Below, one piece after another: positions 2,191 through 56,620 of a stretch of 64,000 bases of DNA. Every line of letters begins with the position of its first letter. The stretch's first letter is position 1. Position numbers and translations under genes: made by a program. The stretch lies in contig CANJUQ010000005.1 in the NCBI GenBank assembly GCA_947478175.1, forward strand, positions 6,145 to 70,144. The letters run 5' to 3'. The stretch is from Thiotrichales bacterium (lineage in GTDB: Bacteria > Pseudomonadota > Gammaproteobacteria > Francisellales > CACEW01). Below the pieces are notes generated by a model. The model had not been told where the DNA came from, did no database searches, and worked only from the letters and a program-made list of their open reading frames with translations.

Positions 2191-5025
2191 TTACAAACCC
2201 AGGGCCAGCAAGTCTTCTGGTACTGACTGGGGATCTCTGGGTTGATGTTGAGCTAAAAATAATACGCGGGCTTGAACCGAGGGAGCGTCTTGTTTTTCGC
2301 CAGCGAGCAAAAATAAATCTAAATCGAGGCCAGGAGAGAGCTTTAGATGGCTCAGTGCTTCAAAGAAAAACTTTAGGGTTTCTAATTTTTTTGATTCGTC
2401 TTCTCTAAATTCAACATCCAAAGGGTTTGGTGATGCAGTGGTTTCTTGGTCTGGGTCCCGCATGGCTGAACCAAATAAAATTTTAAAAGCGGTGTAGCGT
2501 TGGCCGCTTAAATTTGAAGGTTTTAATGTTTGTAAGGTGCGAAAAATATGGATGGGCCAATTAGAGGGTTCCATAGCAGCAGCGGTGCATACAAAATCTT
2601 TAGATTGGGCATGGAAACCATTGAGGTGGGGCATCCATTTTTGGAGTACAGAGGGTAGGTATGAGGGCACGCTTAATAAGCGATTTAATTTTTGTAGTTG
2701 GATCACTTTTGGATTAGTTAAATCAAAATTAAATCTCACTCGCAAAGCAATTCCTGCGGGTGTTTCGGGAAGGAGCGGCAAAATTTTTTCTAGAGATTCT
2801 TGAACTGAACGATAGAACTCTAGTGGCATGGTAGTGCTGGAAAAAGAGAGCAAGTGGAGAATTTGAGCGCTGGGGATTGTCGATGGGCCTAAAGCTTGAA
2901 GTGTTTTTCTGAGGCCCCAGAAAATACTGTAATGCTCAGGAGAGCGGCGGGGCACAGGTAGATGTGAGGCTGCCCTGATTTCTAACTGGGCTTTGGCGTG
3001 TTCGAATGAAGCTAAAATAACTCCGATTTTGCTAATGTTGCTAGTGACCGACAAGCTGGCGGGAAGGGTGTCTGGAGTAAAACCAGGAACACTCGGGGAA
3101 GCCATGGGCCTAGGACGGAAAGTTGGAATAGAGGGTTCATAATTTTGGTGAATAAATCGGTGTTTGACGGCAGCTAAAATTTTGAATAAAGCACCTGGTG
3201 CGGATCCAATAATAATGCTGGAGAAATCTGGATGAATGCTAGCTAAATAGTCCAGAAGGGCATCGTAGCGAAAAGTTTCTGTAGAGAGTTTGGGTGAGCT
3301 GAGAATATGAGATAAAGCTTCTTGAGCGCTGCGAGAAGTTAGTAATTGCTGATTAAGTTTCCAATAAAATTCATGAAAGAATGCGGCATTCAAAGGAATT
3401 TGAGTCGAGAGAGCTTTTTGAAGACTTTGAAAACCTGTGAGAGTGTTTAAATTGGCATAAATAGATCCAATAGGATCGGATAGCCATGAATTGGATGTAA
3501 TAACTAAGCGTCGATAGGGCTTATTGGGATGAGAGCTACCTGATATGACAAAGTTAAGTTCAGGTGTCAGGAATTCTGGTTTTAAATTAAGCAAGATCGT
3601 GAGTAAGTTCCAATTTTGTTTTTCTAGGGTTTTTGAAATTAATTTTTGAATGACTAAAGGGTTCTTTTGGATAAGAGCTAAGCCAAAAGCAATTTTTGCA
3701 TAAGCCAATCCGACGGGGTTTTTAGAGAGATCCGCTGCATTTTCTATAAAATCTTTAAAATTGATTAAGCCCTGAGAAATTAATTCTGACAAGCCTGGTT
3801 GAATGGCTCGAAATGTCTCGGGGTCTTTGGCGATTTCAAAAAATTTTTCTAAAAAATCAGTCGGTATTTGAGCTTGTTTAAAATAAGGGGAAAGTGATTT
3901 TCTGAAGTGACGAAGTGCCGTTTTTTCTTCAGGGGGTGTTAGATCTAATGGCTGTAATAAAGTACGTAAATCTTGTCGGTGGATTCCTAATTGGTCAGTC
4001 CAAATTTGCTTTAAGCAGCCTAAGAGCCAGAGTGGGTCTGAGAGAATGAAATCTGGGTGAGAAAGTATTTTGAGCACGAATTTTTTTTCTTTAGGGGTGC
4101 TCTCGGGGGAAGTGAGCAGGAGGGTCAAAAGTTCAGAGTTTTGGTAGCTGGCAGCAAATAAGGTCAGTAATAGCATGATGCGTGCACGGGAATTTTTATT
4201 AAGGGCCGTCAGTGAAAAAGATAAACCAGAAAAAATGACTCCTCCTGATTGAATAAACATTTCGTCATAAACAGAGTCATTAGGAGTAAAACCAAATGGC
4301 ACAATATCACTGATTTTGACCCCTAGTGCCAGGCCATTCAAAACATAAAGGTCAAAACCTTCTTGAGTAGTTATCGGTGGTTTTTGAGATGTATTAAATT
4401 TAATAGCCCAGCTCGGTTTGGAACTAGCAGTGCCTAGTGCTGCTGGTGATGAGATTGAATAATTAGTTATTTCTGCTGGGAATTGATGGGTTTCTAAGGC
4501 TTGAATCAATTTTGTTTTAATTGATAAAGATTCTGCGCTGCCATCGAGTAATTCTAATCTAGCCATTATTTCTTTGACTACAGGGGTGTAAAACTCTTCC
4601 CAATAAGCCCATAAACTTTGCACGAAAAAAATAAATTGTTCGCGATGCGTTGAAATATCTGGAGCACGGGTTTTGTCTAATGCTGGAATAGCCAAGATGA
4701 GCTGTTTTAGAAAAGAGGGCGCTGTTTCTGTTTTTATCTCAGAGGTTTTAGGGGTTAGCTCTTGAGAGAGCTGATTAGCCAAAATCAAAATAGCTCTGAG
4801 ATGTATTTGATAAGCAGGATTTCGGGTTTTGATACAGGCGAGAATTAATTCTGAACACAGATCTAATTTTGAAAAAGAATTTTTTACACAATAGGTAAAG
4901 AGCGCTTCTTCGAGGGCTTGTTGGATTTTTTTTGGATCTGTGAGATTTAAAAAATAATGAATAAATCGGGATGATTTTAAAATATTTAAATCAACGATTG
5001 GGGTCGTAGCTGGGGCTCCTGACAT
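2191..5025 (-). CDS. Large orphan protein (944 aa), Leu-rich and probably helical, no recognisable domain; candidate secreted effector
   Basis: Long uninterrupted ORF. Start context is TAATAGGAGTGTTACATGTCAGGA. The N-terminal 90 aa share a pattern with ORF <1..2159 (F-H-FL-L ... LF-T-C ... EL--AC-K ... HL-A-LI--N-L). Confidence 0.75.
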   Translation of the reverse strand: MSGAPATTPIVDLNILKSSRFIHYFLNLTDPKKIQQALEEALFTYCVKNSFSKLDLCSELILACIKTRNPAYQIHLRAILILANQLSQELTPKTSEIKTETAPSFLKQLILAIPALDKTRAPDISTHREQFIFFVQSLWAYWEEFYTPVVKEIMARLELLDGSAESLSIKTKLIQALETHQFPAEITNYSISSPAALGTASSKPSWAIKFNTSQKPPITTQEGFDLYVLNGLALGVKISDIVPFGFTPNDSVYDEMFIQSGGVIFSGLSFSLTALNKNSRARIMLLLTLFAASYQNSELLTLLLTSPESTPKEKKFVLKILSHPDFILSDPLWLLGCLKQIWTDQLGIHRQDLRTLLQPLDLTPPEEKTALRHFRKSLSPYFKQAQIPTDFLEKFFEIAKDPETFRAIQPGLSELISQGLINFKDFIENAADLSKNPVGLAYAKIAFGLALIQKNPLVIQKLISKTLEKQNWNLLTILLNLKPEFLTPELNFVISGSSHPNKPYRRLVITSNSWLSDPIGSIYANLNTLTGFQSLQKALSTQIPLNAAFFHEFYWKLNQQLLTSRSAQEALSHILSSPKLSTETFRYDALLDYLASIHPDFSSIIIGSAPGALFKILAAVKHRFIHQNYEPSIPTFRPRPMASPSVPGFTPDTLPASLSVTSNISKIGVILASFEHAKAQLEIRAASHLPVPRRSPEHYSIFWGLRKTLQALGPSTIPSAQILHLLSFSSTTMPLEFYRSVQESLEKILPLLPETPAGIALRVRFNFDLTNPKVIQLQKLNRLLSVPSYLPSVLQKWMPHLNGFHAQSKDFVCTAAAMEPSNWPIHIFRTLQTLKPSNLSGQRYTAFKILFGSAMRDPDQETTASPNPLDVEFREDESKKLETLKFFFEALSHLKLSPGLDLDLFLLAGEKQDAPSVQARVLFLAQHQPRDPQSVPEDLLALGL

Positions 5026-5128: not shown

Positions 5129-6592
5129 CTAGAAAGAATGCCCTGGCGTTAATTTTGGAGCCAATTTTTCTTGAAGATAGATTTGTAACTCGGCGAGTAA
5201 GTTTTTTTGTTTAGAATCTAATTCGCGTTTTTCAGCCGTTTGAAAATCAGCCTGAAAATCCGCTAGGCCATATTGTTTCTTGCCCATAAAATCGATGGGT
5301 CGATCTGCTAGATCATGAGAGTAAATATTTTTCTGGTGAGTTAGATAATTTTCTTGAAGAGAGCCATTTGAAAATTCTGGGAAATCTCTTGCCAGAATTC
5401 GCTGACCTAATGTTTGAATAACAAGATTATTGATTTTCAAAAGGGCCTGGTATTTATCAGCAGGATTAATAGCGTGATGGAATGCTTGAATTTGTCTGGT
5501 TTCTAGCGGTGTCCAAAAATCAGATTGATAGAGACCCGCTTGGACATCGGTGTTTGGATAATTGGGATATTTAAAATGTCCCCAGTATTCTTTGATGCCA
5601 TTAAATAAAATTGGATTTTCTAGTAAAAATTTTATGTTTTTTTGAGCGATAGCCAGGCGGTCTTTTTTAATATGGGTTTGATATTTTTCTTGATAGGGCA
5701 ATAAAAATCCGACTTCGCCCAGTTTTTTTTGAACGACAAAAGTTTTATCAGAAAGATTATCTAGCGTGGCATTGGATAACTCTGGGAGATCTAATCTCAG
5801 CCAGCCATATTGGTTTTTATAATGGTAATGCTGACCTAAGCCTAGAACAGGCGCTTGGTATAAAAACTTTGTTCCTAATTTAGGTAAAACTAATAAACCC
5901 GTTGGGGCAGTTTGATGATTAGAAAAATTAACTTTGGGTAGCTTGGTTTGTCTTTCTTCGTCTGTTTTTTTCTGAAAATAGCCAGACAAATAATTCCACA
6001 TGGCGGGTTCTTTTTGGAATCTTTTGGCAAGTTCTAGAGTTGCTTCGACGTCAGTCATGGCGTTATGGGCTTGGCCTGTGGCGAGTTTATTGAGTGAAGA
6101 AATCTTTTCGAGCTTTAAAGACGGTGCGCCATCTTTCATGGGCCATTCTAAAGGCGAAGGTTGTTGGAAAAGATAAAACATGACGGTCATGGGATAGAGA
6201 TCCATCCGAGAGCAATTATTGGCATATTGATGGGTGTAGGGAGTTAGAAGATTTCTGTAAAAACTAAATCTTAAAAATTCATCATCGAATGTCAGCGTGT
6301 TGTAGCCAATAGAGATCGTCCCCGGGATATTTAATAACGCGTGAATTTCGCGCATAGCCTGATATTCCGTTTGGCCATTTTTTAAAGATTCCAGAGAAAT
6401 TTGATGGGTAATACTGGCAAGGGGCGAAGGAATGACATCAGGTTTGAGTTTGATCCAAATTTCATGCCGTGAAATTTCGTTCAGATTTAAGTCTGTTCGG
6501 ATAGCCGCAAATTGAAAGACTTGATCAAAGGGCTTGCTGAGACCTGAGGTTTCAATGTCATAAAAAAGATAGGTGGGGGCAGTGATAGACAT
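5129..6592 (-). CDS. sbcB: Exodeoxyribonuclease I
   Basis: N-terminal DEDDh exonuclease motif YLFYDIETSG..FDQVFQFAAIRTD. Also GYNTLTFDDEFLR and HNAMTDVEAT. Length of 487 aa is typical of ExoI. Confidence 0.9.
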   Translation of the reverse strand: MSITAPTYLFYDIETSGLSKPFDQVFQFAAIRTDLNLNEISRHEIWIKLKPDVIPSPLASITHQISLESLKNGQTEYQAMREIHALLNIPGTISIGYNTLTFDDEFLRFSFYRNLLTPYTHQYANNCSRMDLYPMTVMFYLFQQPSPLEWPMKDGAPSLKLEKISSLNKLATGQAHNAMTDVEATLELAKRFQKEPAMWNYLSGYFQKKTDEERQTKLPKVNFSNHQTAPTGLLVLPKLGTKFLYQAPVLGLGQHYHYKNQYGWLRLDLPELSNATLDNLSDKTFVVQKKLGEVGFLLPYQEKYQTHIKKDRLAIAQKNIKFLLENPILFNGIKEYWGHFKYPNYPNTDVQAGLYQSDFWTPLETRQIQAFHHAINPADKYQALLKINNLVIQTLGQRILARDFPEFSNGSLQENYLTHQKNIYSHDLADRPIDFMGKKQYGLADFQADFQTAEKRELDSKQKNLLAELQIYLQEKLAPKLTPGHSF

Positions 6593-6833: not shown

Positions 6834-7916
6834 ATGTCTTATTTTTCACAAGACCCCAATCGATATTTATTTATTACGGCCTGTCTTAATGGAAATCCTG
6901 CCACGGCAAAATTGTTGATGGCCGCGAATCAAGACATAGGTAATCCCTATGAAAAAATAGCCGATAGGGTCCAGTTAATGGAGCATGCCCTTGAAGAAAT
7001 TAAGTATTCTGTGGCCGTGCGGGATCAAGACGGTTTAGATCAATTTAAAGCAATTATTAAATTATTAGATCCAGATAAATCTTATCTTACAGAGCAGCTT
7101 TATATCGCCGCCATGACACATGATGAAAATCGATTGAAAGTTTTGATTGATGGAGGTGCGGATATCAATCAAAGCAGCATGGGTTATGGTTCTGTGAAAG
7201 ACGCTGTGAGGACGTTGAAGGTCTCAGATGACGTGGATTTTAAATTAAAATTAGATAAATGGACTGCAGAAGCTTCAGCGCCATTATCTTCAACGATGTC
7301 CTCTCCTTCGGGAGCAGTTGCTTTAGCTAGGCCTTTTTTGCGTTTGGATGATTTCGCTAAGAAACATGCGCTCTATCGAGTGAAGTTAGGAGAGAATCTA
7401 GATAGTCCCATTTTTGAAGGCGCAGCAGAAACCCTCATCAGTTTTGCAAGCCGTGCGGGGTTTGGGGGTGAACTTATGTCACAACATGCGTTGAAACATA
7501 AGCAGCTACCGAAAGGTTTAGAGAGAGAAACAAAAGAGGCATTACTAAGAGAGGCAGCAACTAAAGTTTCTATGGCGGCCAGTGATTATGAGCTAGATAA
7601 AATTGCTATGGCATATACCCCTCTTTTGGCCCTACATCGAGATGATAGGTCTTATGGACAGACAGCTTCTATAAAAGCTTTCGACAAATTTAAAGAAGAA
7701 AAATCTGATCAGCTAGCCCGAGGAGAAGTCTCTCCTGCTGCAAGTGCTCATGCGTTTTTTGGTTCTCCAGCCATAGGTGCTTTAGGTCCTGTGAAGCCTG
7801 TCCCTCTTCCTGGGTCTCCAGGTCCAGATGATCAAAGTTCTGTTTCTTTTGGTGGTGCAGGTTCTGGCGCTGGTATAGGTACTGGAGCAGGTGGGCCGAG
7901 TTCACCAGGTTTTTAA
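6834..7916 (+). CDS. Hypothetical protein with ankyrin-like repeats and a Gly/Ser/Pro-rich C-terminal tail
   Basis: RBS AAAGGTGA precedes the ATG. LFITACLNGNPATAKLLMAANQDIG and LYIAAMTHDENRLKVLIDGGADINQ resemble ankyrin consensus (A--G----vk-Li--GAdiN). The tail is GSPGPDDQSSVSFGGAGSGAGIGTGAGGPSSPGF. Confidence 0.6.
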   Translation: MSYFSQDPNRYLFITACLNGNPATAKLLMAANQDIGNPYEKIADRVQLMEHALEEIKYSVAVRDQDGLDQFKAIIKLLDPDKSYLTEQLYIAAMTHDENRLKVLIDGGADINQSSMGYGSVKDAVRTLKVSDDVDFKLKLDKWTAEASAPLSSTMSSPSGAVALARPFLRLDDFAKKHALYRVKLGENLDSPIFEGAAETLISFASRAGFGGELMSQHALKHKQLPKGLERETKEALLREAATKVSMAASDYELDKIAMAYTPLLALHRDDRSYGQTASIKAFDKFKEEKSDQLARGEVSPAASAHAFFGSPAIGALGPVKPVPLPGSPGPDDQSSVSFGGAGSGAGIGTGAGGPSSPGF

Positions 7917-8839
7917 AACCATTGATTAATAGTTTTCTTAAAATCCTTCGCATTCGGCTGGCCGTAATACAGCCCCAGCATATGGCGAGTGATGGAATGC
8001 AACGTCCGATTTTTTTGAGAAGTTTGTTCAAGAACCCAGGGTTTTAATTTCTGTAAAATGTCTTCACGAGACATTGAAAAATCAGGATCAAAATAGGATT
8101 TTTCAATTTGGGTCAGTAAATACGGATTGTGATACGCCGCGCGGCCAATCATGACACCGTCGGTATGTTTTAGATGATCGTCTATTTGGGAAATTTGCGT
8201 GATACCGCCATTAATCTGAATAGAACAGTCAGGGAAATCTTGTTTAAGTTGATAGACCCGCAAGTAATCTAGTGGCGGAATTTCACGATTTTCTTTGGGG
8301 CTTAGTCCAGACAACCAGCCTTTTCGAGCATGGATAATAAATTCTCGGCAGGGAGTTTGCGTTTTAATTTGGTCTATAAAATTTTGTAAATTCTCATAGC
8401 TATCTAAATCATCGACGCCTGTTCTGGTTTTGACGGTGACAGGAATATTTTTACTGGATTCAGCGATGGCGTTTAAACAATCAATCACTCGGGGTGGGTC
8501 TTTCATCAGACATAGACCGAACATACCAGACTGAACTCGGTCAGACGGACAGCCAATGTTTAAATTAAATTCGTCATAGTTAAATTCAGTACTGATTTGA
8601 GTGGCTTTAGAGAGTATTTCTGGATTAGACCCGCCGAGCTGTAAAGCAATGGGGTGTTCCATAGAGTCATCAAAACTTAATAATCTTTCAGGATCACCAT
8701 GAGTGATGGCTTGGTCTGTGATCATTTCTGTATAGAGCCAAATATGGGGTGATAAAATTCTGTGAAAATATCGGCAGTATTGATCGGTCCAATCCATCAT
8801 GGGTGCGACGGAGATTTTGGGGGTGGGTTTTATCTTCAC
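7913..8839 (-). CDS. dusA: tRNA-dihydrouridine(20/20a) synthase
   Basis: SVAPMMDWTDQYCRYFHR, NLNIGCPSDRVQSGMFGLCLM and IIHARKGWLSGLSPKENREIPPLDY match E. coli DusA closely. GTG start at 8839 overlaps the vapC stop (GTGA). Confidence 0.9.
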   Translation of the reverse strand: MKIKPTPKISVAPMMDWTDQYCRYFHRILSPHIWLYTEMITDQAITHGDPERLLSFDDSMEHPIALQLGGSNPEILSKATQISTEFNYDEFNLNIGCPSDRVQSGMFGLCLMKDPPRVIDCLNAIAESSKNIPVTVKTRTGVDDLDSYENLQNFIDQIKTQTPCREFIIHARKGWLSGLSPKENREIPPLDYLRVYQLKQDFPDCSIQINGGITQISQIDDHLKHTDGVMIGRAAYHNPYLLTQIEKSYFDPDFSMSREDILQKLKPWVLEQTSQKNRTLHSITRHMLGLYYGQPNAKDFKKTINQWF

Positions 8840-9240
8840 TCAGGTGAGACCATTCTGACTTTTGGGTAGTAGGTTTTGTAACGCGAAGCATCTCGGGTGA
8901 GTAGAATTAAATTTTCGGTTAAAGCATGAGCGCCAATGAAAAAATCAGGGAGCGTAGAGGCTTTAGTTCCCCCTTTTTTCTTATATTGAATAAAAGATTT
9001 CCCTGCTAAAAAAGCAGCTTCCCACGGTAACGAAACACGCAAAATTTCAGAGGGTAAAGATTTGTCGAGCTCTTCAGATGTTTTAAATCGGACAGAGATT
9101 TCGCCATAGATAATGGGATTAATACAAAGCGTATTATGTTCAGAAAGCTCGGCGAGCTGTTCTGAAGACCACGAGAACCAGAGAGGATCTTCGGTGAAAA
9201 TATCTAATAAAATATTGCTATCGATCAAAACTCTTTTCAC
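8836..9240 (-). CDS. vapC: Type II toxin VapC (PIN-domain ribonuclease)
   Basis: 134 aa. PIN acidic residues are in context: LIDSN, YGEIS, PDFFIGAHA, LLTRD. It sits directly downstream of an AbrB-fold antitoxin gene. Confidence 0.85.
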   Translation of the reverse strand: MKRVLIDSNILLDIFTEDPLWFSWSSEQLAELSEHNTLCINPIIYGEISVRFKTSEELDKSLPSEILRVSLPWEAAFLAGKSFIQYKKKGGTKASTLPDFFIGAHALTENLILLTRDASRYKTYYPKVRMVSPE

Positions 9241-9256
9241 AGATTATTTTCCCTTC

Positions 9257-9487
9257 TTATTTCTCACCACGAGTCATAGCCATGATCTGATCGGTTGAGA
9301 GTTTGGTGCTGCCCTTGCCTCGTAATTGTTCTATTAGCGACTGGCTTCTTTTGGAGGGGGATTCACTTTTTTCTAAGTAAACCCGTCCATTTTCTAGTAA
9401 GAATTCGATTTCTGTATGAGGTAATAATCCCAAAGATTCTCGAATGTGTAATGGTATGGTCACTTGTCCTTTGCTCGTAATATGCAT
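9257..9487 (-). CDS. vapB: Type II antitoxin VapB (AbrB/SpoVT fold)
   Basis: 76 aa. SKGQVTIPLHIRESLGL is the SpoVT/AbrB looped-hinge-helix motif. The gap to vapC is 16 bp. Confidence 0.8.
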   Translation of the reverse strand: MHITSKGQVTIPLHIRESLGLLPHTEIEFLLENGRVYLEKSESPSKRSQSLIEQLRGKGSTKLSTDQIMAMTRGEK

Positions 9488-9532: not shown

Positions 9533-10999
9533 TTATTTTTTAAAAACAAGGGGCTTTGTCTTAATTTTGACTTTATCTCCCTCGCGATAGAGCAAATATT
9601 CAAATAGTCCTGAGGGATAATTTGTTTCTAAAATCCCCTGATATTCCGGCTGGCATTGCTTCCAGATTTCATAGACGGGGGTATCAAAACTTAAATAAAT
9701 CCCCGGGGTATTTTCTTGGGTATAAACCTGACGCCAGGCATAACAAAAATCAGCCAAATTTTTTAAATAGGGAAATTGTTTGGTGCATTCAAATTGGGAT
9801 AAATAATCTGAAAAATCTTCGCCATAGGTATTTAAATTAAAATCTTGAACAAAATTCTCATTGGCATAATTAAAAATACACCCGTCAAATAAATCAGGCT
9901 CTAAAATTTTTGAGAGGGGCTTAAAAGTTTTTTTTAAAATTTTCTCGCGAGAGCCCACCATGCTTTTGTAATAAATATGGGCCCGAGATTCTGGGGAAAT
10001 ATTTGGAAAAATAGTGGGTGAAATTATTTTATATAAATCTAGAGGATCACCCGTTAGATAATTTATCCAGGCAGATTCTGAGTTTTGTTTTGAATTTTGT
10101 TTTGAATTTTGTTTTGAATTTTTTTCTGGGATTTTTTTATTAGGAAAAAATAAAAGATTAGATTTTTCTATCTCTGCAGAGAGTTTGGGTTGAGGGTTTT
10201 GAATAATTTTTTGGATAGTCTGGGTCTCTTCCAGAATTTTATTAAAGCTGGGTAAGTCATTATCCCATTCTAAACAAGTGGGGATGGGGCCATGCTGAGC
10301 TTGAATCTCTGCAAAACAATTGAGGACCCTCTCGGAAACAGCCCGGCTGTGGGTGTCGATCCATAGGCCGTCGTGATATTCAGCACCTGCCAAGTGAATT
10401 TGTTTGACGGAATTAAACGGAATTTCTTGTAAAAATGGTTCAGGTGATTCGCCATGATTGTCAGCCGTTACGAAAATATTATTAATATCTAATAACAAAC
10501 CGCAGCCTGTTTTTTGAGTGAGTTTTTTTAAAAATTCAGCTTCAGAAAGAGGGGAATCTAAAAATCTAAAATAAGACGAAATATTTTCGATTAAAAAATT
10601 TTTCTTAAATCTTGTTTGTAATAAATCAATGCGCCGAGCAACGCGATCTAAAATTTTATAGTCCCATGGGATGGGTAATAGATCATGAGTAAAAATAGGG
10701 CCCACTTTGGAAAAACACAGATGGTCTGAAATCCATTCGGGTTCATAGCGATGAATTAAATTTTCTAGAAATTTTAAATAGCGAGAAGATATTCTTGCTT
10801 GGCTCGCCAGAGATAAATTGACACTGTGTAAAACGCAGGGATAAATTTCTCGAAGCTGATCTAATTTTTTTAATAAAAATTCTGGGACTTCAAAATATTG
10901 ATCTGCTAAAAATTCTAGCCACTGAATAGAGTTATATTTTTTCTCTAGTAAATCTTGAAAATACTGAGATCGAAGCCCCAGGCCTGTGTTGATAATCAT
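9533..10999 (-). CDS. MNIO (DUF692, BufB-like) oxidase fused to a DUF2063 (BufC-like) partner domain
   Basis: The N-terminal ~275 aa carry DUF692 hallmarks: GLGLRSQY, LHSVNLSLAS, ISDHLCF, LIENISSYF, TGCGLLLDINNIFV, IHLAGAEY, IDTHSRAV, CLEWDNDLP. The linker is PEKNSKQNSKQNSKQNSES. The C-terminal ~180 aa fit the DUF2063 pattern: RAHIYYKSMVGSREKILKKTF..., NLNTYGEDFSDYL, YLKNLADFCYAW. Confidence 0.85.
   Translation of the reverse strand: MIINTGLGLRSQYFQDLLEKKYNSIQWLEFLADQYFEVPEFLLKKLDQLREIYPCVLHSVNLSLASQARISSRYLKFLENLIHRYEPEWISDHLCFSKVGPIFTHDLLPIPWDYKILDRVARRIDLLQTRFKKNFLIENISSYFRFLDSPLSEAEFLKKLTQKTGCGLLLDINNIFVTADNHGESPEPFLQEIPFNSVKQIHLAGAEYHDGLWIDTHSRAVSERVLNCFAEIQAQHGPIPTCLEWDNDLPSFNKILEETQTIQKIIQNPQPKLSAEIEKSNLLFFPNKKIPEKNSKQNSKQNSKQNSESAWINYLTGDPLDLYKIISPTIFPNISPESRAHIYYKSMVGSREKILKKTFKPLSKILEPDLFDGCIFNYANENFVQDFNLNTYGEDFSDYLSQFECTKQFPYLKNLADFCYAWRQVYTQENTPGIYLSFDTPVYEIWKQCQPEYQGILETNYPSGLFEYLLYREGDKVKIKTKPLVFKK
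10083..10118 (-). repeat. In-frame 12-bp x 3 tandem repeat (KQNS)3 in the interdomain linker
   Basis: The plus strand reads ttttgttttgaa three times, perfectly. Confidence 0.9.
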
Positions 11000-11025
11000 T
11001 TAAATTTTTAGATTATTTTTTTGAA

Positions 11026-11424
11026 TTATTTTTTTGAATTATTTTTTGGATCAGGTTTTTTTTCGAGTTTGCCTAAAACACCGCCTTTAACATTCATGCA
11101 AACGCCTTTGGGAATGGCGATCCAAGCTGCAGGAGAATTATTGACGGCGGCTGTTCCACCACAGGCCGTGCTATTTGTCGCGCAATCGTTTTCTCCAGCG
11201 GCTGCAACGCCATAACATTCGACATAGTCATCGGCGGTCACGTCGACCATTTGGGTGTGGGCTAATTTTTCGCAAATGCCTTTGGTTGTCATGAGGGGGG
11301 CGTCAGGGCTTGCTTTAGAGATGCCATAACACTCGACTAATTTATCTTGAGGATTGCCGCCACTACAGCCGGCTAATAATAAAATGGAACTGAGAGTTGC
11401 TGTATTGAGGATAATTTTTTTCAT
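11026..11424 (-). CDS. DUF2282 (bufferin-type) RiPP precursor; lipoprotein signal, partial plus full Cys-rich core
   Basis: Signal MKKIILNTATLSSILLLAG|C contains a lipobox. The full DUF2282 core is VECYGVAAAGENDCATNSTACGGTAAVNNSPAAWIAIPKGVCMNVKGG. It is preceded by a shortened copy, VECYGISKASPDAPLMTTKGICEKL. The gene lies 26 bp upstream of the MNIO gene. Confidence 0.85.
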   Translation of the reverse strand: MKKIILNTATLSSILLLAGCSGGNPQDKLVECYGISKASPDAPLMTTKGICEKLAHTQMVDVTADDYVECYGVAAAGENDCATNSTACGGTAAVNNSPAAWIAIPKGVCMNVKGGVLGKLEKKPDPKNNSKK

Positions 11425-11439
11425 GTTGGATTTTCCGTG

Positions 11440-11952
11440 TTATTTAATTTGAACCCAGGGGGCATTTTTGTTTGAACTGCGATGAGTTAAATGGCCCCAT
11501 TTTTTGTGAATAAAATAATCTAAAGAAAACCGCCCCATGCCATGGAACATCAGCATCATGAGCAATAAACCCCAGAGTACATGGTCGTCGAAACCAGCAT
11601 CGCCTGAGGGAGTCCATAAAAAATGAAAAGAAAGAACGCAGATAACATTGTAAATAAGGAACATGAAGATAAATAAACGCCCACCGAGTCCCAGGACTAA
11701 AAGTATGGGAAAAAGTAGCTCTACGAAGGTTCCCAAATAGGCTGCAAAGGCGGGGGACATAAACGGTGTTGAATAGACATATTTAAATAAAACTAAAGTT
11801 GTATCCCAATCCGTGAGTTTGCTCAGCCCTGAAGTAAAAAAAACTTGAGCGATCCAGAGTCTAACAACCAAGTCTCCTAAATCTCGACAGCGGTTAAAGA
11901 TGTGAAGTAGTGGACTGAGTAATTTGGATGAAATCTCGATGTGTTTTTTCAT
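11440..11952 (-). CDS. DoxX family membrane protein
   Basis: 170 aa with about 4 TM segments. DoxX pattern: VRLWIAQVFFTSGLSKL, GTFVELLFPILLVLGLGGRL, GMGRFSLDYF. The gap to the precursor gene is 15 bp. Confidence 0.8.
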   Translation of the reverse strand: MKKHIEISSKLLSPLLHIFNRCRDLGDLVVRLWIAQVFFTSGLSKLTDWDTTLVLFKYVYSTPFMSPAFAAYLGTFVELLFPILLVLGLGGRLFIFMFLIYNVICVLSFHFLWTPSGDAGFDDHVLWGLLLMMLMFHGMGRFSLDYFIHKKWGHLTHRSSNKNAPWVQIK

Positions 11953-12012
11953 AAAAAATATTTCTGACCGGGCTTGTTAAAACGGGCGGGAATATAGCAT
12001 AGCTTGCTTACA

Positions 12013-12834
12013 TCAGACTACTCTCACCAAAGCTTTCAAGGCTCTCATCAAATTGTTTGTCAGACTCCTCAAGAAATTCAGCAATTCCCTGCATATTTGT
12101 TTTTGGAGAAGATGGGTGTGGGTTAAGCGTTGTATCATCGGTAGCATCAAAAAAGAAAATTCCCATGAAGCTCGAACTTTTTTTGCGAGCTCACAATGTG
12201 CAGAAGAAAGCGCGGGGTCTTTGATTAAATAGTGATCCAAACAATTTATGATGTTCATATAGAAGGTGAAATTTTTTTCAGAAATAAAATCTTCTTGAGA
12301 TTGGCTGCTGATACAAAGCGCTTTAACGGGTTCATAGATGTGTTTTTTAAAAATGGCCTCTCTTAAATAATCTTGGGCACCTTGGGCGGCGGCTGCTTCT
12401 AATTGAGCTACTGCAAGTAAAAAAGCAGAGATGATGGCTCCTAAATTAGAAGTGGCAGTTGTTATTATTTTTAATTTCAAAGGATTTTTTTCTTTCAATA
12501 CCAACGCTTTTTGGATTGCAACTTTGTCTGTTATCATGCTGATTAGAAGTTCCGATAAATTAGATGTGAGTAGGGCTGGAACGTCATGGATGCTGTAGAT
12601 CTTCTCGAAAATATTTTTATGTGTTTCGTTAAAATTAGTGTCATATTCAGCGGCTTTTTCTGGGGTCATAGCAGTTTTATCTTTGACTAACTGGAGTAGC
12701 TCTTGAAGAAGCTGCGAAAAACCTTTGACCATTTTTTTTAAGTCTTGAATTTTTTCCCTGCCGTAGGCAGACATTGGAATGGTGGGCCTGGTGGGCCTGG
12801 TGGGAATGGCGACTGCAAACGCTGATCCTGACAT
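12013..12834 (-). CDS. Orphan protein (273 aa), MSG N-terminus, PTR repeat
   Basis: Long ORF starting ATGTCAGGA. A 9-bp repeat ggtgggcct at 12781-12804 encodes (RPT)n. No recognisable domain. Confidence 0.55.
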   Translation of the reverse strand: MSGSAFAVAIPTRPTRPTIPMSAYGREKIQDLKKMVKGFSQLLQELLQLVKDKTAMTPEKAAEYDTNFNETHKNIFEKIYSIHDVPALLTSNLSELLISMITDKVAIQKALVLKEKNPLKLKIITTATSNLGAIISAFLLAVAQLEAAAAQGAQDYLREAIFKKHIYEPVKALCISSQSQEDFISEKNFTFYMNIINCLDHYLIKDPALSSAHCELAKKVRASWEFSFLMLPMIQRLTHTHLLQKQICRELLNFLRSLTNNLMRALKALVRVV

Positions 12835-12903: not shown

Positions 12904-13668
12904 TTAGGTCCAAATGGCCACGACAGCCATGAGTCCAAAGCCTATGAGAAGCAGGCTGAAATATTGTAAATGGTGAAGTTTGTCTTTTGGATTTTTATCT
13001 AGATTTTTATTTGGGTTTTCTGGGCCATGAGAGATTCCCAAATAAATAAAAGTACCCGCAGCCAGGCTATTAAAACAAGGTTCTAAAAGAGGGGCTTGTG
13101 AAAAATCATGATGAATCGCTGTACCGATTAAAATCCCCAAGGGGGTCATGAAAGCAAAGATTAAAAATAGAAAAACGCGTGATAAAAATCCGTAATGGCT
13201 TTGATTAATTTTGACAGCAATCGCAAATCCCGCAGCCCATTTATGAGCCAAGATGGCGGTAAGAATAATCCCTGCCATGACGAGATTATTAGTGAGACCT
13301 AATGCAGAGCCTTCTAATAAAGAGTGAATCGAAAGCATCAACGTTCCAATGAGGGCCATTGAAGTAATAGGGATACTTTCTTCGAAGATCCAAAGTAATA
13401 AAAAAGCCAGGCCAGCTAATAAAAAAGCAAAAGGGTATTGATAGCCTAATGTTAAAAATTGACTGGAGGCATCGCCTAATAAATGGATTAACCCAGCGCC
13501 TAGAAAAACCCCCTGGGAAAAAGCGAGTGCCCAAGAAAAGTTAGAGGGAAACAAAGAATTTTGAGTGTTTTTAAATTTTTGATGAAAGGGCAAATAACCC
13601 GAAATTAAAGTCATTATGAGTAATAAAAAAATAGAAATTAATTTGAAATGAAAAAGTGAAGTGTGCAT
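12904..13668 (-). CDS. ZIP family divalent-metal transporter
   Basis: Multi-TM protein with ZIP signatures SIHSLLEGSALG and AILAHKWAAGFAIAV. Confidence 0.75.
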   Translation of the reverse strand: MHTSLFHFKLISIFLLLIMTLISGYLPFHQKFKNTQNSLFPSNFSWALAFSQGVFLGAGLIHLLGDASSQFLTLGYQYPFAFLLAGLAFLLLWIFEESIPITSMALIGTLMLSIHSLLEGSALGLTNNLVMAGIILTAILAHKWAAGFAIAVKINQSHYGFLSRVFLFLIFAFMTPLGILIGTAIHHDFSQAPLLEPCFNSLAAGTFIYLGISHGPENPNKNLDKNPKDKLHHLQYFSLLLIGFGLMAVVAIWT

Positions 13669-13669
13669 G

Positions 13670-14803
13670 TTAAGCGGCCAATTCCATGGATAGAAAATAA
13701 GACATGGCAGGATTTAACAGAACGTAATAACCGTCAGTACGTTTATAAACCAAGTCCAATTGAATTAAGTCAGCAAGGCTTTTTTGAATGACGGAAGGTG
13801 AGGAATTCACCTCCATGGAAAACGCATGGCTCTGAGGTTCGCAAGAGGGTTGTTTCGCCAGAGCAATAAGCAATTTTCGGCGATTGAGGGTTAGCTTTGA
13901 GAAGTCAGAGACAATCCATGAAGCTTGCTGCGTCACATAGTCATGCCATGTTTTTCGAATGGTTGACAGATCTGGAAGTGTGTCGTTGTGCCAAAGTTTT
14001 CGACAGAGTGTATTGACATAGTAAGGGTGGTTTTCAGTGAGGTGCATGATTTCCAAAAAACAATCTTCTGGTAATTTTTTACCCCAGTTTTTTTTAGCTA
14101 AATGGTTTAAAAAAGTTTGATAAGACGGGGTTTCTATACGGTCTAAAGTAATTAAATCGCATAGATGATAAAGCGGTCTGGATTTATCACTGAACATTTT
14201 GTTTAACAGGTGTCGCGCACTACCACAAAAAATATAAGTGACATATTGGCTTCGTTCGACGGCATGGCGAATAGCCGCTTCAATACTGTGATTTTCTTTG
14301 AGCTCGCCAATTTGTTGAAACTCATCCAAGACCATGACGCATGTTTTTTTAGTTTCTTGAGCACATTGGTCAAGGGTTAATAAAAGTTCGGTCAGATTTT
14401 TTTCTGAACTTTGTTTAGAAGAAAGTTCTAGTTTTTGGCCTAAAAATTGAAACGTGAGTTTTGGATTGAGAGTAATCAACTGATTAATAATTTTGGATCG
14501 CGTGGCCTGACCTTCAGGAAGTAAATCATTCATGAGCGCTGAAACGCCTTCTGAAATAGCTTTCAAAACATCTGATTGTGAAGTCGAAAAGAAGAAATCA
14601 ATTCGAGTACCTGGGAAAGTATTTTCGTGTAAAACCTGCATGATCAAACTGGTTTTTCCGTAACGTCGGGGCGCTGTCAGTACTAAATGCTCATGTCGTT
14701 CGATGCTTTTTTTGAGTAATTCACGTTCTTTTTCTCGGTTGCAAAAGGCGTCTTCAGTGGCGATGCCTTGGGGAAATTGTGGAGAGGTGTTTGGAGGAGG
14801 CAT
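13670..14803 (-). CDS. AAA+ ATP-binding protein (archaeal-ATPase-like) with C-terminal winged-helix-like region
   Basis: Walker A is APRRYGKTS and Walker B is VMVLDEFQ. Sensor-like IFCGSARH is present. The stop lies 1 nt before the ZIP gene start. Confidence 0.6.
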   Translation of the reverse strand: MPPPNTSPQFPQGIATEDAFCNREKERELLKKSIERHEHLVLTAPRRYGKTSLIMQVLHENTFPGTRIDFFFSTSQSDVLKAISEGVSALMNDLLPEGQATRSKIINQLITLNPKLTFQFLGQKLELSSKQSSEKNLTELLLTLDQCAQETKKTCVMVLDEFQQIGELKENHSIEAAIRHAVERSQYVTYIFCGSARHLLNKMFSDKSRPLYHLCDLITLDRIETPSYQTFLNHLAKKNWGKKLPEDCFLEIMHLTENHPYYVNTLCRKLWHNDTLPDLSTIRKTWHDYVTQQASWIVSDFSKLTLNRRKLLIALAKQPSCEPQSHAFSMEVNSSPSVIQKSLADLIQLDLVYKRTDGYYVLLNPAMSYFLSMELAA

Positions 14804-56225: not shown

Positions 56226-56302
56226 CGGGGTATAGCGCAGCCTGGTAGCGCGCTTGCTTTGGGAGCAAGATGTCGAGAGTTCAAATCCCTCTACCCCGAC
56301 CA
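56226..56302 (+). tRNA. tRNA-Pro (UGG)
   Basis: CGGGGTA.../...TACCCCGACCA. Anticodon loop CTTTGGGA. Confidence 0.93.
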
Positions 56303-56330
56303 AATTATTGAAAGAAGTAAAGAGTAACGA

Positions 56331-56407
56331 GCGCCCGTAGCTCATCTGGATAGAGCATCGACCTTCTAAGCCGAGGGTAGCAGGTTCGAATCCTGCCGGG
56401 CGCGCCA
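56331..56407 (+). tRNA. tRNA-Arg (UCU)
   Basis: GCGCCCGTAGCTCATCTGGATAGAGCATCGACCTTCTAAGCCGAGG... resembles E. coli argU. Anticodon is TCT. Confidence 0.93.
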
Positions 56408-56434
56408 GATTTTGTATGTTGTGAGATTTTTAAT

Positions 56435-56511
56435 GGTGGATGTAGCTCAGTTGGTAGAGTCCCGGATTGTGATTCCGGTCGCCGTGGGTTCAAGTCCCAT
56501 CATCCACCCCA
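56435..56511 (+). tRNA. tRNA-His (GUG)
   Basis: Has the extra 5' G(-1). GGTGGATGTAGCTCAGTTGGTAGAGTCCCGGATTGTGATTCCGG...CCACCCCA. Confidence 0.95.
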
Positions 56512-56535
56512 TGTCTTGATTGTTTTCTAGCCCAT

Positions 56536-56620
<85 letters not shown>

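Follow-up and report, generated by a model that had tools for sequence, protein, structure and literature searches.

In a 64-kb stretch of DNA from the Thiotrichales bacterium contig CANJUQ010000005.1 (64,000 nucleotides, hereafter the window), three tightly spaced minus-strand genes, doxX, bufA and bufBC, appear to form an operon for a lipid-anchored metallophore of the bufferin-1 (Buf1) type, a ribosomally made, post-translationally modified peptide (RiPP) carrying 5-thiooxazoles and also called a 'captophorin'. We give this class assignment and the overall scheme a probability of about 0.75. The first gene of the module, doxX (11440..11952), encodes a 170-aa integral membrane protein resembling BufD and HvfX; bufA (11026..11424) encodes a 132-aa precursor consisting of a lipoprotein signal, an N-terminal module with two Cys (N-module) and a four-Cys DUF2282 module; and bufBC (9533..10999), an uninterrupted open reading frame (ORF), encodes a 488-aa natural fusion of an MNIO enzyme with its partner protein. 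The intergenic gaps are 15 bp between doxX and bufA (11425–11439) and 26 bp between bufA and bufBC (11000–11025), and the ORF list and the sequence agree with the three-gene layout of a preliminary description of this DNA.

The profile hidden Markov model searches proposed in that description place the products in all four families of a bufferin cluster (DoxX, DUF2282, MNIO, also known as DUF692, and DUF2063), each above the curated cut-offs against which Pfam matches were judged. The motifs it had listed are all present in the translations, both in the enzyme (GLGLR, HSVNLSL, SDHLCF, ENISSYF, TGCGLLLDINN, HLAG, DTHS and EWDND) and in the peptide (ECYG..NDCA..AC.G..W..IPKG.C). Its proposal of a bufferin-type cluster is borne out by the presence of the four families, by invariant metal-ligand columns in the MNIO domain and by a C-terminal domain that folds like MNIO partners. 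The same four families are found in BufA1B1C1D1 of Caulobacter vibrioides (CCNA_03363-03366), and in the 'gig' operons of Cupriavidus and Legionella pneumophila. Judged by its sequence, the locus has the defining features of Buf1, but falls short in two stricter comparisons, the BufB equivalog score and a complete RiPP recognition element (RRE).

The mechanism that we propose builds on direct observations (the gene set and its families, the MNIO ligand set, the in-frame partner fold, the lipobox, the seven-Cys pattern and the conservation of the module) and relies on Buf1, Hvf and DybA for the chemistry, the lipidation, the localisation and the metal (PMC11626156, PMC11252979, PMC13056109, PMC13097082). 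In the cytoplasm, the iron-dependent BufB::BufC would bind the BufA core and oxidise C81 and C88 of the DUF2282 module to 5-thiooxazoles, the fusion hard-wiring a 1:1 enzyme-partner complex. The precursor would be exported by Sec and receive a diacylglyceryl group on C20, and N-acylation would follow cleavage by signal peptidase II; the Ser at +2 would make Lol sorting to the inner face of the outer membrane probable. In the periplasm, C70 and C109 would form a disulfide, as in Buf1, and C32 and C51, the same outer pair, a second one, so that the metal-binding domain would be held apart from the lipid anchor by a stapled spacer. The tethered peptide would chelate Cu(I)/Cu(II) through its thiooxazoles and buffer periplasmic copper, with DoxX as a conserved membrane partner in a non-biosynthetic role.

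The precursor and its half-domain

BufA begins with MKK and a hydrophobic stretch followed by a lipobox, L-A-G-C, at residues 17–20 (11365..11376, on the minus strand as are all parts of the module), with Ser at +2. These motifs read as an export signal of the signal-peptidase-II type, and the lipoprotein anchor claimed earlier for the precursor stands as a motif-based prediction. The protein has seven Cys, at residues 20, 32, 51, 70, 81, 88 and 109, the last four of which lie in the DUF2282/BufA1 core module (residues 67–116; 11077..11226). This module scores 67 bits with DUF2282 (PF10048; E = 1.4e-18, cut-off 22.4, residues 69–116). In a collection of 5.8 billion proteins we found 57 BufA cluster representatives, nearly all of 131–176 aa and all passing DUF2282. 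Among them the lipobox Cys, which forms a nearly invariant column, both N-module Cys and the four core Cys are each at least 90% conserved; C70, C81, C88 and C109 show no variation and line up with the cores of canonical Buf1. The roles that we assign to the Cys are taken from Buf1 of C. vibrioides (PMC11626156, PMC12452194), in which the central Cys become thiooxazoles and the outer pair a disulfide (PMC12452194), for a total of –10 Da (PMC11626156). By this analogy, the thiooxazoles are predicted to form at C81 and C88 and the disulfide between C70 and C109. The Buf2 type (6/12-Cys) does not apply to BufA, which reaches 24.1 bits with the NCBIfam model Cu_RiPP_BufA2 against a cut-off of 60.

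In more distant loci, the canonical Buf1 precursors combine an ordinary signal peptide with just one module. In BufA an additional N-module (residues 29–55, LVECYGISK...KGICEKL; 11260..11340) precedes the core. By itself it gives no significant match to the DUF2282 Pfam model (E = 0.16, 12.4 bits). A profile of the N-module from 11 relatives aligns in hhalign with the DUF2282-module profile at a probability of 89.5% (E = 2e-6), both flanks matching around a 20-residue deletion that corresponds exactly to the loop with the two central Cys. Because the alignment gap removes the loop of the modified central Cys, we regard the N-module as a degenerate half-copy of DUF2282 in which, of the Cys, only the outer two (C32 and C51), i.e., the disulfide pair, are left. 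The duplicated core reported previously is therefore right as to the kinship of the first module with DUF2282 and wrong as to its nature, since this module lacks the two central Cys and is not a second core. The half-copy is conserved in about 55 sequence clusters and is better conserved than the linker behind it, and a clearer W-I-A..G.C.K motif is visible in a distant member (L027; L numbers designate related loci and P numbers related proteins).

At the end of bufA, a 13-nt tandem repeat, ATTATTTTTTTGA (11012–11047, 2.8 copies, 100% matches), covers the last codons, the stop and the greater part of the 26 bp that separate bufA from bufBC. Read on the coding strand, the repeat places three A7 runs just 5' of the bufBC start, which could cause slippage or alter translational coupling at the bufA/bufBC junction.

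The fusion enzyme and the DoxX protein

The N-terminal part of BufBC is an MNIO TIM-barrel domain (residues 5–266; 10202..10987) that matches PF05114 (MbnB_TglH_ChrH) at 5.3e-86. Among NCBIfam families the best is MNIO_BufB (NF050167, 'MNIO family bufferin maturase') with 279.7 bits, followed by HvfB with 193.1 bits, well below its cut-off of 360; this score and the lack of any EGKCG motif in BufA speak against an oxazolin (Hvf) type. A methanobactin (MbnABC) type is not indicated either, since BufBC obtains 58 bits with TIGR04159 (MbnB; cut-off 325) and the precursor differs. In an alignment of 40 MNIOs, H58, H93, E138, D171, N174, H202, D215, H217 and E244 are invariant. D215 and H217 align to D208 and H210 of MbnB, H210 being the position mutated by crystallographers (PDB 7tcw). 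In Foldseek, the domain is closest to the DUF692 structure 3bww (TMt 0.88) and then to TglH and MbnB.

AlphaFold2 models the full-length protein with a predicted local distance difference test score (pLDDT) of 92 and a predicted template modelling score (pTM) of 0.90, and disorder is confined to residues 270–305 or thereabouts. These residues form an inter-domain linker (10085..10192; pLDDT 47–59) the length of which varies among homologues. Because the pTM is high in spite of the disordered linker, the prediction is that both domains pack in the manner of a BC complex. The C-terminal partner domain (BufC/PME1-like; 9548..10084) comprises a helical DUF2063 part, recognised by PF09836 at residues 328–400 (7.7e-7, 29.7 bits, cut-off 27.2), and a three-stranded sheet. 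When modelled separately (pLDDT 85), its sole confident matches in the PDB are TglI (8hci_A, 8hi7_A) and NGO1945 (3dee), with a probability of 1.0 and TMq of 0.52–0.56, all remaining matches having probabilities below 0.13. Since the domain confidently matches MNIO partner proteins and nothing else, we consider BufBC a genuine BufB::BufC fusion, and both the fusion and the first position of DoxX, as noted in the preliminary description, agree with the ORFs and the Pfam assignments.

The partner chain stops immediately behind strand 3. In distant fusions and in the separately encoded BufC of L025 (255 aa) it continues for 40–110 more residues, which indicates that the RRE helices are missing from the partner domain. 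Consistent with this, the full RRE-type C-terminal domain PF22106 (NGO1945_C) has no Pfam match in BufBC. Partial RREs are already known in the MNIO partner family (bioRxiv 10.64898/2026.07.17.739211).

The DoxX protein matches Pfam DoxX (PF07681) at 1e-13 (52.2 bits, cut-off 23.6) and DoxD at 1.6e-6. HvfX is its closest NCBIfam family, but the score of 51.5 bits falls short of the cut-off of 80. Across the related loci, identity to the window proteins is 65–82% for DoxX, 44–82% for BufA, 46–64% for the MNIO domain and 31–49% for the partner domain. Invariant DoxX motifs include DWDTT.VLFK and FHFLWTP.G..G.DDH. The window protein is 58–60% identical to the products of the doxX genes found in last position in L025 and L026, which are orthologous. 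In Buf1, BufB and BufC are needed for modification and DoxX is not, and the modified peptide binds copper (PMC11626156, PMC12452194). A split-gene relative, L024, is without DoxX and has a cytochrome-b561-like (Ni_hydr_CYTB) membrane protein gene (5853–6386) directly after the partner gene, an arrangement that hints at an interchangeable fourth component that is a membrane redox protein.

Recurrence of the module and its surroundings

A scan of the genome collection with the single fusion protein as the query returned no relative; with an alignment of close homologues as the query it returned 18 loci. At least nine other metagenomic loci (L001, L002–L004, L005, L006–L009 and L023) have the order doxX-bufA-bufB(C), and L010 has the same bufA, bufB and a split bufC on a contig that ends about 430 nt upstream of bufA, so that any doxX would lie beyond its end. 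Because the same gene set and order recur in independent assemblies, their occurrence is far beyond chance. The flanks differ from locus to locus (TauE/MarC, amino-acid permease/glycosyltransferase, metallophosphatase/histidine kinase and others), and this recurrence amid unrelated neighbours marks the three genes as a self-contained, conserved functional unit. The lipoprotein two-module precursor is also found in the orders A-B-C-D, with a 255-aa or a 188-aa partner, B-C-A-D and A-BC(fused)-DoxD-like, so gene order is fluid within the subfamily. The relatives come from metagenomes, some of them metagenome-assembled genomes (MAGs) with isolate names that resemble lake-sampling codes; the MAGs of L005 and L007, in which the module has its closest genomic relatives, are titled 'Francisella tularensis subsp. 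holarctica', a label that looks doubtful, like a deposit error, given that Lon of the window lineage is only about 62% identical to that of named Gammaproteobacteria.

The enzyme and its partner are fused in the same frame in L001, L002, L005, L006, L023 and P0001 and are encoded by separate overlapping genes in L007–L010 and L024. In a neighbor-joining tree of the MNIO domain, the DoxX-first clade has 100% bootstrap support, as does the group formed by the window, P0001, L001 and L005, all fused; L006 (fused) and L007 (split) are sisters, again with 100% support. At the junction, L006 differs from L007–L009 by a 20-nt indel that brings partner and enzyme into one frame and eliminates the stop codon. 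A single origin of the fusion is ruled out by the interleaving of fused and split forms in the tree and by the indel that separates L006 from L007. Nor is the fusion rare or novel: an exhaustive search of 1.84 billion representative proteins yielded 5193 MNIO relatives, and of the 150 best representative clusters, about half reach a length of 460 aa or more. PF05114 and PF09836 were both present in each of ten long relatives sampled, most long relatives being of 530–620 aa with a full-length partner and a few of 466–487 aa like that of the window. Such fusions adjoin DUF2282 genes in L027 and in L028, the latter from a Bdellovibrionales genome. The fusion is most readily understood as a simple and recurring means of fixing a 1:1 enzyme-partner complex.

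Upstream of doxX on the same strand lie orf273 (12013–12834), which encodes 273 aa with no Pfam or NCBIfam family, and a ZIP transporter gene (12904–13668; Pfam Zip, 2.7e-28). The preliminary description had placed this transporter two genes upstream, which is correct, and had set it beside the cluster as if related, which does not hold: tblastn found neither ZIP nor orf273 in any related locus, ruling out either or both as part of the system. From this comparison, ZIP seems to neighbour the module in the window by coincidence. Upstream of orf273 there is a promoter-like site (12912–12883), and orf273 may be co-transcribed with the module. Directly downstream of bufBC, on the same strand, is a VapBC-like pair consisting of a PIN-domain protein (8836–9240) and a MazE/AbrB-type antitoxin (9257–9487).

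Elsewhere in the window we found no paralogues of doxX, bufA or bufBC. A promoter scan gave 7 promoter-like sites, fewer than in shuffled controls (13.3 ± 4.0), a terminator scan gave 5 terminator-like sites, no excess over shuffled controls (4.7 ± 2.5), and an Rfam search found only tRNAs, of which there are eight, at 37009–37441 (Val, Ala, Glu, Glu) and 56226–56620 (Pro, Arg, His, Leu). The gene content includes gyrA, rpsA, serC, fumC, gatB, aspS, hisS and clpX-lon in addition to an OprB porin, an MFS transporter and an HlyD/TolC efflux set. The Lon protein is 77–82% identical to metagenomic proteins, including that of the L001 contig, and about 62% identical at best to those of named taxa (Sulfuriflexus, Pseudoalteromonas, Salinivibrio). 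Nothing in these analyses favours the reduced, intracellular-type host, or the role in a host vacuole built on it, that the preliminary description had suggested. Two 'ATPase_2' (archaeal-type AAA ATPase) genes are present, one directly upstream of ZIP (13670–14803) and one at 34561–36150. A 944-aa ORF without detectable domain (2191–5025) and a 360-aa protein with weak ankyrin-repeat hits and a Gly/Ser/Pro-rich tail (6834–7916) resemble effector-like orphans and have no bearing on lifestyle either way. Almost all 2-kb bins of the window (1–64000) have a positive GC skew, and cumulative skew climbs steadily despite genes on both strands. Finally, in L002 the bufferin module lies near genes for a pertussis-toxin-S1-like ADP-ribosyltransferase (11692–12447) and a ZnuA zinc-binding protein (8389–9261).

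Known systems, competing readings and implications

With Buf1 the locus shares a four-Cys DUF2282 precursor and Sec export, from which two 5-thiooxazoles, one disulfide and copper chelation would be expected by analogy. It differs from the Buf1 operon in its order (D-A-BC instead of A-B-C-D) and in having B and C on one polypeptide. The partner has about 180 residues without the RRE helices, compared with about 255 in Buf1, and the locus has a lipoprotein signal, an extra two-Cys half-domain before the core and no adjacent sigma/anti-sigma pair. Compared with MNIOs from canonical DUF2282 loci with a single module (L012–L021), that of the window shows only 34–38% identity. The hvf operon of nontypeable Haemophilus influenzae (NTHI1440 DoxX/HvfX, HvfA, HvfB and HvfC), which makes an oxazolin, shares the DoxX-first order (PMC11252979). 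In addition, the window DoxX scores best against HvfX, and an engineered HvfB-HvfC fusion fully modifies HvfA (bioRxiv 10.64898/2026.07.17.739211), which indicates that the fused format works. However, EGKCG repeats occur in the Hvf precursor, which does not belong to DUF2282, and HvfB and HvfC are separate in Haemophilus. Natural MNIO::DUF2063 fusions (P0016 from a Bdellovibrionales MAG, P0299 and P0114) have the same PF05114 + PF09836 architecture, and P0299 (478 aa) resembles the window in having both a short partner and a lipoprotein two-module precursor. These fusions are only 27–34% identical to BufBC, most being of 530–620 aa with a full-length partner, and DoxX is last or absent. In the literature searched we found no discussion or testing of natural MNIO::DUF2063 fusions, and in the supplements of PMC12452194 no mention of fusions or lipoproteins.

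A lipobox on an MNIO substrate is shared with lipidated MNIO RiPPs (DybA/DybH, chryseobasin-like; PMC13056109) and with lipoprotein bufferins. Lipidation is real in DybA and predicted for some bufferins (PMC13056109), including 16% of Buf2 (PMC12452194), so that for bufferins it is so far prediction rather than demonstration. DybH belongs to the ChrH subfamily and forms a macrocycle/hydantoin in Bacteroidota. Tandem precursors (Buf1/Buf1 OAD22792.1 and 12-Cys Buf2) carry, as BufA does, more than one bufferin-derived module per precursor; in contrast to theirs, the first module of BufA is degenerate, is without the two-Cys loop and fails the DUF2282 model when searched alone. The preliminary description had presented the architecture as a novelty, which is not tenable given that DoxX-first is the Haemophilus hvf order, MNIO::DUF2063 fusions are abundant and lipidated bufferins have already been predicted. 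Each non-canonical trait of the locus has precedent in databases or papers. What goes beyond published descriptions is the combination of traits, the half-domain in about 55 clusters, the truncated partner and the labile fused/split state.

Clusters of the Buf1 type frequently, though not obligatorily, have an extracytoplasmic function (ECF) sigma factor and an NrsF anti-sigma factor next to them. By Pfam, no sigma/anti-sigma pair or other metal regulator adjoins the module in the window, which weighs against a copper-buffering bufferin and makes copper responsiveness an assumption. Several further points count against our reading. BufA passes no NCBIfam precursor model, and the 279.7 bits of BufBC remain below the equivalog cut-off of 310 for NF050167. 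The putative sorting to the outer membrane rests on the E. coli +2 rule, and the relative L002 has Asp at +2. The shortened RRE of the partner may entail a substrate recognition different from that of the Caulobacter system. Lastly, DoxX is the most conserved gene of the module, which sits oddly with a dispensable accessory.

This last observation is also an argument for two readings in which DoxX is central, neither of which we regard as probable. In one, the lipid-anchored two-module bufferin would be a dedicated periplasmic partner of DoxX and not a free copper buffer, the two forming a membrane-bound redox/metal-handling pair in which DoxX would serve as a docking site for the stapled half-domain or receive electrons or metal from it; we hold this as a doubtful proposal, which, if true, would give the DoxX genes of bufferin clusters a function. 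The other supposes a different metal, e.g., zinc, or a DoxX-centred function in redox or sulfur stress to which the peptide is accessory. Bufferin operons respond to gold, cadmium or copper depending on the species and MerC fusions exist (PMC11626156, PMC12452194), the ZIP gene lies on the same strand, and the ZnuA gene of one relative lies two genes away from the module. However, every related locus lacks ZIP and orf273, every characterised thiooxazole peptide binds copper (PMC11626156, PMC13097082) and Cu, unlike Zn, Fe or Mn, elicits a response from the buf reporters of C. vibrioides (PMC11626156), so this too seems improbable. As to the N-module, a two-site metallophore with four heterocycles would result if C32 and C51 were also converted to thiooxazoles, as might be suggested by their conservation, by the existence of tandem Buf1/Buf1 and 12-Cys Buf2 precursors (PMC12452194) and by the little sequence preference that DUF2282-type MNIOs show around target Cys (PMC13097082). 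We judge such a second active site to be poorly likely, since C32 and C51 align to the first and last Cys of DUF2282, the unmodified disulfide pair in Buf1 (PMC12452194), and the deletion in the N-module takes out exactly the loop with the modified pair. The N-module could instead be a built-in, leader-like recognition element that the shortened partner domain needs for docking, and not a spacer. Recognition of Buf1 uses part of the core and not the signal peptide (PMC11626156), RREs associated with DUF2063 have no identified leader motif (PMC12710340), the RRE helices are missing in the clade of the window, and the N-module is under better conservation than the following linker. The same two-module precursor nevertheless occurs with long partners (255 aa in L025, 238 aa in the P0292 locus), which rules out compensation for the shortened RRE as a general rule, and retention of the N-module in the mature lipoprotein argues for a periplasmic role, leaving a recognition element unlikely.

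A more radical alternative is that the cluster is decaying, or that the 488-aa fusion is a mis-joined repeat and the real genes are separate or broken. The linker of BufBC contains a 12-nt tandem repeat encoding (NSKQ)n (10079–10122; 3.7 copies and 96% matches in TRF), and two assemblies made independently from the same organism, L029 and L030, match the window at 100% identity over 907 nt and both end within this repeat. In addition, the exact 488-aa product is absent from a collection of 15 billion proteins in which DoxX, BufA, orf273 and Lon of the contig are present, and neither protein search gave a match to it of at least 90% identity. This absence is likely explained by assembly breaks at the repeat, the copy number of which is uncertain or variable in the window, yet frame-neutral. 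Since a copy-number error in a 12-nt unit cannot shift the frame, and since at least five related assemblies have fusions without the repeat, we do not question the fusion itself. No catalytic column is disrupted, the model is confident for both domains, and we consider decay or artefact very improbable. We therefore favour a lipid-anchored, Buf1-type metallophore whose half-domain would be a disulfide-stapled spacer.

Nothing in the locus points to new chemistry or to a new kind of system. Its interest lies in the fact that bufferins are a recently defined and very large class in which the DoxX component, substrate recognition and localisation are poorly understood. The fused and split enzyme/partner forms of sister lineages constitute a natural experiment as to whether a 1:1 BC complex is needed, in a system that is conserved even though the partner has lost most of its recognition element. 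A natural single-chain enzyme would also be a convenient reagent for biochemistry and structure work. Finally, with a product that is a predicted lipoprotein bearing an extra, disulfide-stapled half-domain, the compact subfamily made up of this locus and its roughly 55 relatives offers a test of whether membrane-tethered bufferins act.

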